A DNA stretch of 17,781 nt from Planctomycetota bacterium (GTDB lineage: Bacteria; Planctomycetota; UBA1135; UBA2386). Below are positions 1 through 14,522 of this stretch, piece after piece. The stretch covers positions 1 through 17,781 of the forward strand of contig CANMWZ010000053.1 of NCBI GenBank assembly GCA_947501605.1, in the 5' to 3' direction. The position numbers and the translations under genes were made by a program. The notes under the pieces are model-generated. The model did no database searches. It was not told where the DNA came from and saw only the letters and a program-made list of their open reading frames with translations. Within the stretch, counting starts at the first letter, position 1. The number at the start of each line of letters is the position of its first letter.

Positions 1-30
1 CTGGGCGAGACGTGGTTCGTCATGGGGTGA
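1..30 (+). CDS. Probable 3' end of an upstream gene (LGETWFVMG*), product unknown
   Basis: Frame 1 is open from the window edge to TGA at 28-30. Identity with the copy at 5507-5536 stops exactly at this TGA. Confidence 0.55.
   Translation: MGETWFVMG
1..30 (+). repeat. Direct repeat, left copy (may extend beyond the window)
   Basis: ctgggcgagacgtggttcgtcatggggtga is identical (30/30) to 5507-5536. Confidence 0.97.
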
Positions 31-338
31 ATGGGCGCATGCGTGCGCGCGGCTACTCGAGCGTTGGCTCCGGGAACGAGCGCGTCGGGCCGTGCACTTG
101 TCGTGCGAGGGAAGGTCCACGCCAGAGCTGATCGCGTGCTGGGCTCAGCGATCGACGTCGTGGGCGAGCAGCGCGGCGTTGCGAGTTGCAGTGCGTCGGC
201 CGTCAGAACCGTCGCCATGACTCTGCCGGGTCGATGAGGAGCTCTTCTTCATCTCGGAACGGCCTCTGGCATGCAGTCACTGCGGCCGAGGTCTCGCGGA
301 GGTCTGCCTCGTGACCTCGCTGCGCCGGCCCGGGGGGA

Positions 339-366
339 TTGACGAGTCTGCCAAGCCAAGTACTGT
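339..366 (+). promoter_or_regulatory. Candidate sigma70-type promoter for the 512-5261 genes
   Basis: TTGACG (339-344), 16 nt spacer, TACTGT (361-366). Overlapped by a 9-bp inverted repeat at 343-351/372-380. Confidence 0.5.
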
Positions 367-492
367 TCGCCGCAGACTCGGTAGCAGGGCAGCAAGAAGA
401 AGCACAAGCCAGAGAGTCAGCGGTCGAGGTTCGATCTCCGCGAGGAGAGGCCTCGATCGTGACGGGAACGTGGGACTCTGCTCCGAGTCAAG

Positions 493-520
493 GAACCATG
501 AACCATGAACCATGAACCAG
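493..520 (+). repeat. Heptamer tandem repeat (GAACCAT)x3 + GAACCAG spanning the start codon
   Basis: Read directly. It creates ATGs at 498, 505 and 512, one in each frame. Confidence 0.95.
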
Positions 521-12423: not shown

Positions 12424-12479
12424 CTACGAAAACTCGGAGACCACGAGCCTTCGTAGTGAAGGGCTACGAACCACCGTAG
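12424..12479. promoter_or_regulatory. Three 16-bp imperfect palindromes (CTACG-N6-CGTAG), candidate enhancer sites
   Basis: ctacgaaaactcggag (12424-12439), ccacgagccttcgtag (12441-12456), ctacgaaccaccgtag (12464-12479); about 80-135 bp upstream of the -24 box. Confidence 0.7.
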
Positions 12480-12490
12480 TCTGGGCCGCT

Positions 12491-14104
12491 ATGAACGTCG
12501 CCAGCCTGCCGCAGGTCATGGTCGCAGTGGCGCAGAACCTGGGTCTGCCTGAGGTGCTGCGAACGGTCGTGCGCGGCATCGCCGACTGCAACAACGTCGC
12601 GCTGACGCGCATCTGGTTGTTTGGACCCGGCGACCTCTGCGCGTCGTGTCGCTTTGCTGACGACTGCGCCGACCGGTCGCGCTGTCTGCACCTCGTCGCC
12701 AGTGCCGGCAATCTGCGCACGGAGGGCGTTGACGCGAACAACCTGCACGGTGCGTTCCGGCGCTTTCCTACCGGTCATCGCAAGATCGGCCGCGTCGCGG
12801 CTACGGGCGAGGCGATGTTGTTGCGCGAAGTGAAGGGCGACGAACCGTGGATCGTCGATCGCGAGTGGTTCGCCCACGAAGGCGTGCGCGCATTCGCGGC
12901 CCAACCGTTGGTGTTTCGCTCGGAGGTTCTGGGCGTGCTCGCGGTGTTCGATCGGCTGCCGCTCGACGATGCGGAACTGCAGTGGCTGCGCGTGTTCGCC
13001 GATCACGCTGCCGTCAGCATCGCGCACGCGCGCGCGTTCGAAGAGATCGATCGACTGCGCAACAAGCTGCTCGCCGAGAACGACTATCTGCACGAGGAAG
13101 TGGATCGCGTCCGCGGCGGCGTCGAACTCGTGGCCGAGAGCGATGGGATGCAGCGCGTGGTGCAGCAGGTCCGCATCGTGGCGCAGACCGACGCAACGGT
13201 GCTCATCACGGGCGAGAGTGGCACCGGCAAGGAGGTCGTGGCGCGGTCGATTCACGACCAAAGCCGGCGACGAGATCGGCCGTTGATCCGCGTCAACTGC
13301 GGGGCGGTGCCAGAGAGCTTGTTCGAAAGCGAGTTCTTCGGCCACGTGCGCGGTGCCTTCACCGGGGCGCAGAAGGATCGCATCGGGCGTTTCGAGTTGG
13401 CCGACGGCGGCACGCTGTTTCTCGACGAAGTGGGCGAGATCCCGCTGGCGATGCAATCGAAGTTGCTGCGCGTCATTCAGGAGCGCGAGTTCGAGCGCCT
13501 CGGCGACGGCAAGACCAGGACCGTCGACGTGCGCATTCTCGCGGCTACCAATCGCGACTTGCAGCAGGAGGTCGACGCGGGCCGCTTCCGGCAGGACCTC
13601 TACTACCGACTCAGCGTGTTCCCGATCGAGTTGCCGCCGTTGCGCGATCGCCGCGCCGACGTCGCGGTGCTAGCAGAGCACTTCCTTCGCGCGCAGGCCC
13701 GGCGCGGAGCCAGGCCCGTTCGGCTCGATCCCGTCGGGCTGCGGCAACTCGAAGCCCACGACTGGCCGGGCAACGTGCGCGAACTGCAGAATGCGATTGA
13801 GCGCGCGCGCATTCTCGCCGAGGACGGTCCGCTGCGCTTTGCCGAGCTCGGCGCCGCCGCGTCGCGACGCAGTGGTATCCCCGCGCGCACAGGGTCGCCG
13901 GCAAAGGCCGCTCGCGGTGAGCCTGAGACCGTTCGTACGCAGTTGCAGTTGCGCGAGGAAGAGCGCGGCAATCTCGTGGCGGCGCTGAAGGCCACCCATG
14001 GCAAGGTGTTCGGGCCCGGCGGTGCTGCGGAGTTGCTCGGGATGAAGCCCACGACGCTCGCTTCGCGTCTGAAGGCACTCGGCATCGACCGCAAGCAGGC
14101 GTGA
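12491..14104 (+). CDS. Sigma54-dependent enhancer-binding protein: Cys-rich GAF, AAA+, Fis-type HTH (537 aa)
   Basis: [47 protein letters not shown] and [19 protein letters not shown]. The GAF domain carries C50-x2-C53-x5-C59-x5-C65. Confidence 0.97.
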
Positions 14105-14123
14105 GGAGCGAGCTACGGAGTGC

Positions 14124-14522
14124 TCACCACTCCTGGCGACTGACAATCACTCGCAGGCCGTCGACGACGACGAGGATCTTGCCGGGGCGGCCGTCGGCAC
14201 GAAGGTGGAGCGCGTAGTAGCGGCCACCCTTCGCGACGAGCTCGTCGACGAACTCGTCGAGCGCGCGCACGCGGTCCTGCTGCAGCGACGAACCGCGCAG
14301 CAGGTAGTGGTCGTAAGGGACCCGTTGCCCGGTCGACGCGGTGTCGGCGTCTGGGCGCCGTTCCGGCAAGGAGCCCGTGTCCTCGCACAAGGCTGCCAGC
14401 ACGAGTTCGCGCGCGGCGCCCGTGAGCGGCGGCGGCGGATCGGTAGCGACGGGACCGCCGACGGAAGGGGAGGGCGCGGCACAGGCGCACAGGACGATGG
14501 AGAGGAGCAGGTGCGTTCGCAT
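14124..14522 (-). CDS. Hypothetical lipoprotein (132 aa)
   Basis: MRTHLLLSIVLCAC lipobox-like signal. Follows the anti-sigma gene by 21 nt. Its diverged copy at 10372 conserves the same frame and stop. Confidence 0.8.
   Translation of the reverse strand: MRTHLLLSIVLCACAAPSPSVGGPVATDPPPPLTGAARELVLAALCEDTGSLPERRPDADTASTGQRVPYDHYLLRGSSLQQDRVRALDEFVDELVAKGGRYYALHLRADGRPGKILVVVDGLRVIVSRQEW

Follow-up and report, generated by a model that had tools for sequence, protein, structure and literature searches.

The window examined here is a stretch of 17,781 nucleotides that forms an entire contig (C53) of G000, a planctomycete genome assembled from metagenome data (4.65 Mb in 89 contigs). Read from left to right, it holds the end of a pilin-like gene, two cargo genes, a second copy of the pilin-like gene end, genes for a sigma factor and a Ser/Thr kinase, and two further cargo blocks that end at a lipoprotein-like gene (Table 1). 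Displaced copies of gene ends such as these, which we call scars, and the way they may have arisen are the subject of this report. An earlier note on this DNA had described three independent 3'-end duplications. All three repeat pairs are present where it placed them and lie beyond chance (when the window was simulated 200 times with an order-5 Markov model, an exact repeat of at least 21 bp never appeared), and each repeat ends at a stop codon or 3 bp before it.

Two events in the window

At the kinase-lipoprotein site, the order of features is kinase, DUF6288 gene, lipoprotein end, kinase end, a redox block with a sigma-54 activator, and lipoprotein gene. The kinase-end repeat consists of 7604-7632/10498-10526 (27 of 29 positions) and 7764-7822/10520-10578 (58 of 59), with an internal deletion of 138 bp in the displaced copy (K') at a 7-bp microhomology, TCGTGCC. 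The lipoprotein-end repeat is 10372-10495/14124-14247 (85%), and its displaced copy (L') has a 12-bp deletion close to the joint between the two remnants. This joint, 10498-10509, matches the lipoprotein gene at 14264-14273 (10 of 10) and the kinase gene at 7604-7615 (11 of 12). Because the spans of the two repeats (7604-10578 and 10372-14273) interleave and both displaced copies meet at this single joint, they record one event; two separate insertions could give such interleaving only if each carried the remnant of the other. The site thus holds two alleles of one kinase-lipoprotein variable site in tandem, connected by one novel microhomology joint, and the window contains two events rather than three. 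The earlier proposal that incoming DNA pushes the old 3' end downstream fits one of the two remnants at the joint, but the other must have come with the donor, as at the tex site described below.

Homologs of the DUF6288 protein had different neighbours in six relatives, and the redox block of allele 2 recurred in six relatives with differing flanks. Lipoprotein homologs were present in 10 of 90 other genomes of the family, none of them beside the kinase or the cargo blocks of the window, and no shared synteny for the kinase tail or the lipoprotein was found in 91 family genomes. When JGI metagenome contigs were scanned for exact matches to the kinase end, there were 0, so no conspecific empty allele was found there.

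In the other event, positions 1-30 are 100% identical to 5507-5536. Because the window starts mid-gene at the start of its contig, and contig C89 overlaps it by 149 bp, the repeat is 40 bp long and not 30 (C89 2875-2914 = window 5497-5536); 12 further bases upstream of the scar form a diverged match (AAYL vs AAMC). The 217-aa pilin-like protein had no Pfam match and shares 40% identity with a type IV pilin-like paralog in the same genome, relatives of which start with GFTLIELM. The GC content of the block at 31-5496 is 0.633, vs 0.67-0.71 in the rest of the window. A homolog of cargo 1a (60% identical) occurs at a different site in relative G001, where it adjoins a homolog of cargo 1b. Among the 13 relatives' loci read, none showed pilin-like homologs followed by the sigma/kinase pair.

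No recombinase family was found among the 14 window proteins scanned with Pfam, and the window has no tRNA and no Rfam match, in agreement with the earlier report of no integrase, transposase or tRNA.

Two side observations concern cargo 1b. A 34-bp inverted repeat with a 13-nt loop lies at 5388-5468, between this gene and the scar. In G001, a ~160-bp intergenic element stands 3' of the RCC1 homolog (locus L013; equivalent to window 5098-5261), and about 20 places in G000 match it at 69-83%, as a dispersed repeat.

Table 1. Features of the two events in the window
Feature	Position	Strand	Remarks
Pilin-like gene end (last 30 bp with TGA)	1..30	+	217-aa gene, C89 2261-2914; anchor of event 1
Cargo 1a, 818-aa secreted-looking protein	512..2968	+	No Pfam family
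Cargo 1b, 738-aa RCC1-repeat protein	3045..5261	+	PF13540/PF25390
Event-1 scar	5497..5536	+	Exact 40-bp copy of pilin-like gene end
Extracytoplasmic function (ECF)-type sigma factor	5623..6348	+	Sigma70_r2/r4_2, weak, below cut-off
Ser/Thr kinase (K), membrane-spanning tail	6380..7825	+	PF00069; left flank of event 2; duplicated part 7604-7822
Allele 1: DUF6288 + HEAT protein	7883..10318	-	PF19805
Lipoprotein-end remnant (L')	10372..10509	-	85% identical to intact gene; frame and stop intact
Single novel joint of L' and K'	10498..10509		GC-rich 10-12-bp microhomology common to kinase and lipoprotein
Kinase-end remnant (K')	10498..10578	+	3 mismatches in 88 aligned bases
Allele 2: PNPOx-like, DsrE-like and CMD/AhpD-like genes (-) with GAF sigma-54 activator (+)	10607..14104		
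132-aa lipoprotein-like gene (L)	14124..14522	-	Right flank of event 2; duplicated part 14124-14273

Scars elsewhere in the genome

The earlier note had suggested scanning the genome for displaced gene 3' ends. A self-comparison of G000, built on a purpose-made gene caller (3,716 genes, families by Pfam), yielded five more scars beyond the window, all with cargo and no recombinase between the copies. Four of them belong to tex (C9), a phosphotransferase gene (C42), argS (C61) and a DUF5666 gene (C66). The fifth is of 5' type (C21, 34354-34773 and 56964-57144) and duplicates the upstream flank and start of an RluA-family pseudouridine synthase gene, with two internal deletions. Including the window, G000 therefore holds seven events at unrelated genes, six of 3' type and one of 5' type. 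Paralog pairs, tRNA pairs, intergenic repeats and IS91-like ends were excluded from this count, as were two doubtful cases, a HicB end on C55 and, on C40, a fragment that lies upstream of its gene. When fixed probes from 3,426 genes were tested, those from 3' ends matched downstream eight times (five scars, one paralog and two IS91-like ends), and five control probe classes together gave eight matches, all of them paralogs or insertion sequence (IS) ends by our own reading. None of the seven events (C9, C21, C42, C53, C61, C66, C89) falls on the eight largest contigs, which together make up 1.72 Mb. The scars of G000 thus cluster in flexible regions, at cargo sites. No common hairpin or motif was found at the anchors and joints.

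The 5'-type scar on C21 encloses ~22 kb of genes, several of them cytochrome-c-like by eye. The IS91-like ends belong to arrays in which a repeat of 140-370 bp, made of the 3' end of a Y2_Tnp (PF04986) transposase gene and its downstream end, alternates with 2.5-5 kb of cargo; copies stand at 1869-2221, 7322-7555, 10440-10808, 14688-15055 and 17201-17349 of locus L035 (on C55), and also on C52, C66, C78 and C40. We take these arrays to resemble ISCR-type rolling-circle gene capture. In relative G014, dispersed palindromic intergenic repeats of 34-95 bp (L156-L175 joined, 171659-177506; L074-L076) look like repetitive extragenic palindromic (REP) elements.

Stacked alleles at tex and empty sites in relatives

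Comparison of synteny in relatives had also been proposed earlier. In G003, argS continues directly to the gene that lies after the scar region in G000, and in G001-G003 the phosphotransferase gene abuts its neighbour, the cargo being absent and the gene end present only once. At both sites G000 has retained the downstream neighbour of its congeners, and at tex a tetratricopeptide repeat (TPR) gene comes after the scar. Of the 87 genomes that matched argS, only G000 showed the scar, a count that leaves aside two further second matches located where contigs begin.

When the tex end was searched in 91 family genomes (63 with a match), multiple nearby copies occurred only in G000 and G002. The order in G002 is tex end, cargo A, TPR-gene end joined to tex end, cargo, tex end, cargo, tex end, cargo, TPR gene. 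Four tex-end copies are thus separated by cargo, so that G002 stacks four alleles, and the joint of the TPR-gene end with the tex end (~4 bp, imperfect) is back-to-back as in the window. No recombinase was found in the 12 kb of this site. Cargo A is 99% identical to that of G001, and its flanks are 91-94% identical to those of congeners. A metagenome scan returned eight stretches, of which three were the G002 contig, two came from one further record (L213) and three were unrelated chance matches. In L213 the order is tex, ATPase, a 68-bp tex copy, cargo A and the full TPR gene, and its block is 97.9% identical to the first 2,890 bp of that in G002, an alignment that takes in the flank and the adjoining 100 bp of the TPR gene. 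Over those 100 bp, the TPR remnant of G002 agrees with L213 at 96 positions and with G002's own gene at 94; as this part barely separates the two, it is the flank that carries the argument for a foreign allele. Since L213 holds the same block running on into a full TPR gene, a whole foreign allele, gene end to gene end, has been added in G002 before the resident one.

The contents of the tex-TPR site differ among G000, G001, G002, G003 and L213, with duplicated ends in G000, G002 and L213. The five tex scars start about 470, 350, 300, 90 and 60 bp before the stop codon, which argues against an attachment (att) site, for which one fixed start is predicted. Among the 13 relatives' loci that carry the cargo blocks of the window, two have duplicated parts of unrelated genes on either side of the block. 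These are cargo 1 in G001 (98.6% over 141 bp, up to the contig end) and, in G015 of another genus, the redox block (347 bp, 89%, stop included). No second copy near the phosphotransferase or RluA-type anchors was found in G001-G004, where the DUF5666 gene itself was not found.

Three side observations belong to tex. Its last 60 bp and 9 bp past the stop (L030 3190-3250) are near-invariant across the genus, with a hairpin over the stop codon. Changes in the G000 tex scar are clustered in that stretch. A cargo of low codon score, encoding 538-aa and 137-aa proteins with no Pfam match, is 98.7-98.9% identical in L203 (467-2531), L204 (917-2981) and L213 (7501-9565) between flanks of mostly 86-97%, which suggests recent transfer between lineages.

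Divergence between genes and scars

Seven gene-scar pairs differ by 37 synonymous changes at 287 sites and 21 non-synonymous changes at 835 sites. A model of duplication followed by decay gives fewer synonymous changes than this (p 0.0001-0.005, depending on the transition bias). Recircularisation would leave both copies as mosaics of donor and recipient with the crossover inside. In the tex scar of G000, states shared with outgroups stand to the left and those of G000 to the right, and of the pooled mismatches 34 of 53 fall in the left half, a weak trend that later recombination could mimic. Allelic difference and decay are thus mixed in the scars, and the signal could be inflated if the intact gene recombined later. 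The claim of foreign alleles depends chiefly on L' and on what was seen at tex.

Proposed mechanism

The observation in the earlier note is real, was partly misread, and is better supported outside the window than inside it. Its proposal of homology-anchored insertion with no integrase agrees with the recurrence of scars across the genome and in relatives. We believe the scars probably reflect additive insertion of a relative's DNA through one-sided homology and without a dedicated recombinase, either by recircularisation and a single crossover or by homology-facilitated illegitimate recombination (HFIR). A donor fragment from a relative would bring a shared gene end, different cargo and in some cases also the end of a second shared gene, the next one along in convergent orientation, with usable homology on one side only. 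A short match of a few bases may then let the fragment circularise, after which one RecA crossover in the shared gene end would bring it in. By HFIR, it would instead enter by one homologous crossover and one microhomology joint. The anchor gene would be left whole and the resident allele kept, with a duplicate of 40-470 bp of the gene end behind the cargo. This spare end would decay by point changes and microhomology deletions, and repeated rounds would stack alleles in tandem.

The window joint of 10-12 bp and the imperfect ~4-bp joint in G002 show the one anchor plus microhomology of HFIR. A resident deletion of a size like that of the insert, also a feature of HFIR, was not found at argS, the phosphotransferase gene or tex, whereas the variable duplication around the insert without resident loss, seen in scars of 40-470 bp, is a feature of recircularisation. 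The absence of resident loss leans to the circle, which we favour slightly. The anatomy, the joint, the recurrence, the foreign origin of one whole block at tex and the empty sites in congeners are observed; we infer the dependence on RecA, and likewise which allele of the window came in. The competence genes asked after in the earlier note are present: G000 encodes ComEC and DprA along with RecA. ComEC and DprA hint at transformation as a possible entry route, but ComEC also matches in 10 of 14 control genomes.

Several results weigh against this explanation. Searches of the JGI contigs and the 91 family genomes turned up neither a donor nor an empty allele for the two sites of the window itself, and the kinase ends are 97% alike vs 85% for the lipoprotein ends, a difference that insertion leaves without explanation. 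When changes in four pairs were polarised on outgroups, intact copies had 15 synonymous and 3 non-synonymous changes and scars 10 and 13 (4 ambiguous). The synonymous excess thus lies mostly on the intact copy, the scar branch by itself exceeds neutrality no more than weakly (p 0.05-0.17), and much of the divergence may postdate insertion. Ku, to close the circle, was not found in G000, which is 91% complete. The model also needs the cargo to lie beside the anchor in the donor already, leaving its first arrival there unexplained. Finally, no scar was found in 2.28 Mb of randomly sampled sequence from five relatives (G004 813 kb, G002 208 kb, G003 39 kb, G093 20 kb, G014 1.2 Mb), where ~3.4 would be expected at the G000 rate (P ~0.03 by our own arithmetic; larger contigs favour core regions). 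The earlier idea of a general gene-accretion route in the lineage is therefore only partly borne out: scars occur genome-wide and in relatives, but they cluster at cargo sites, are partly decayed and are missing from the random samples. That this planctomycete family has an efficient additive pathway, by which alleles from relatives are arrayed in tandem wherever a variable site is syntenic, is a speculative extension that we hold to be possible rather than probable. If true, duplicated ends and back-to-back joints would be a countable genome-wide record of recent integrase-free gene gain, and would show how often a process that laboratory work puts at about 1e-9 takes place in nature.

Alternative explanations

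An origin within the genome is the strongest alternative, though we consider it unlikely. Here a tandem duplication at microhomology, or a long target duplication during capture of unrelated cargo, would first yield two identical copies; one cargo would later be swapped by double crossover while the spare ends decayed and the intact gene drifted. The excess of non-synonymous over synonymous changes on the scar branch and the frequent deletions fit this origin, as do the 100% identity of the pilin-end repeat and the finding of the same cargo block behind different anchor genes in different genomes. However, the pooled synonymous excess rejects simple duplication and decay, the differences between L' and L continue as far as the joint, with the frame of L' kept, and in another lineage the stretch between the tex end and the TPR-gene end is uninterrupted.

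Somewhat less likely still are decayed integrase islands resembling cis-mobilizable elements (CIMEs), built by site-specific integration at gene 3' ends and tandem accretion, with the integrase lost or acting in trans. Such islands would account for the 3' bias (six events to one) and for the repeated use of tex with its near-invariant, hairpin-bearing end, and e14 with icdC and CIME accretion leave similar scars (PMC13626634, PMC5704250). G000 has eight PF00589 (tyrosine-recombinase) matches; one, separated from the argS scar by ~23 kb, lies at the distant end of C50, and there are none on C9, C21, C42, C53, C61, C66 or C89. No recombinase or remnant of one was found in any cargo scanned with Pfam, in the window or elsewhere, nor a large serine recombinase in G000 at its 91% completeness. 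The five different starts at tex, the restriction of the argS scar to one genome, the lack of a common motif at the joints and the existence of a 5'-type scar all speak against these islands, and a back-to-back joint of two different gene ends is not an att product.

The runs that contain the window are lake water and freshwater sediment metagenomes, and 12 of the 21 listed runs, from six studies (five flagged as possible source), hold 68-99% of the sequence words of 5000-14500. The earlier note had asked for the junctions to be checked with reads. Four runs were aligned to the window at 85% likeness, where the joint tables were filled by other organisms; a skip of either cargo block did not occur among the rows listed, which speaks neither for nor against an empty allele. 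Pieces of run X7 cover 1-4084, 4086-5526, 5507-6828 and 10549-13428 with 0-1 differences, and break 30 bp inside exact repeats, as expected with both copies present; a piece of X11 likewise begins at 10549, 30 bp inside the exact part of K'. One X13 piece (5322-5739) spans the event-1 scar and one X12 piece covers 7606-8181. The check thus succeeded for the cargo-scar and gene-cargo junctions, covered by pieces of independent runs with 0-1 differences, but the joint of L' and K' is absent among the read pieces listed and stands on the assembly and the word shares. A chimera of co-occurring strains, which an 89-contig metagenome assembly and this uncovered joint might suggest, is nevertheless highly improbable given the read coverage and word shares, the 149-bp match of the C89 terminus to window 1-149 (the longest exact repeat being 42 bp) and the same anatomy in four other assemblies.

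Significance and comparison with known systems

Many acquired bacterial genes sit at integrase-free sites; how such sites are first entered and how they grow is an open question, and double crossover accounts for swapping only. The scar signature (a gene end duplicated behind cargo, a variable start, a back-to-back joint) can be counted in any genome, and scars identify donor lineage and order of arrival. They would provide a natural case of a route so far seen at very low laboratory frequency or proposed for toxin loci only. They also caution that a duplicated gene 3' end alone is no proof of a lost integrase.

When DNA with one-sided homology entered E. coli by conjugation, 56 of 60 clones carried duplications of 109-950 bp, formed when the DNA recircularised and then underwent a single crossover; this route outnumbered HFIR tenfold (PMC3240628). 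Our scars share the variable gene-end duplication around an insert with no dedicated recombinase. That system used an engineered plasmid and cut sites, with a frequency of about 4e-9, whereas here natural chromosomal alleles from relatives are fixed in populations at several genes. HFIR, known in Streptococcus pneumoniae, Acinetobacter baylyi and Pseudomonas stutzeri (summarised in PMC3240628, PMC2884548), shares the single homologous anchor and the microhomology joint, and genes that may serve competence are present in G000; it usually deletes as much as it inserts, at 3-10 bp of microhomology (PMC3240628), whereas in our scars nothing resident was lost and a gene end was duplicated. Merodiploids, as described in PMC3784515, need pre-existing repeats.

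Type VI secretion system (T6SS) effector-immunity arrays of Vibrio cholerae, for which HFIR-like displacement has been proposed, and the orphan modules of Rhs and contact-dependent inhibition (CDI) loci show sequential displacement downstream of an anchor, alleles of different strains and no integrase (PMC5361080). These are toxin loci only, at which selection keeps immunity genes, whereas our anchors include tex, argS, a kinase gene and a pseudouridine synthase gene, the whole resident allele is kept, and Pfam scans found no polymorphic toxin/immunity families among anchors or cargo. The minimal mobile elements of Neisseria (PMC3787668) likewise place variable cargo between two conserved genes and move between lineages by homology. 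They are replaced by double crossover without duplicated ends; here alleles are also stacked and ends duplicated. The element e14 at icd, with its icdC remnant, and accretion of CIMEs and integrative mobilizable elements (IMEs) share a displaced 3' end behind cargo, synonymous differences and tandem arrays (PMC13626634, PMC5704250), but need an integrase and a fixed att core, in contrast to the variable boundaries and the lack of an integrase seen here. Additive islands of Alteromonas (PMC4898812) are tRNA-anchored, and our scars are without tRNA. In the literature searched, with subscription journals largely outside it, we found no description of natural allele stacking at housekeeping genes. 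The mechanisms are already known, and the natural pattern at ordinary genes is new: it resembles insertion-duplication or HFIR at sites of the minimal-mobile-element type, and neither an integrase island nor a toxin orphan array.

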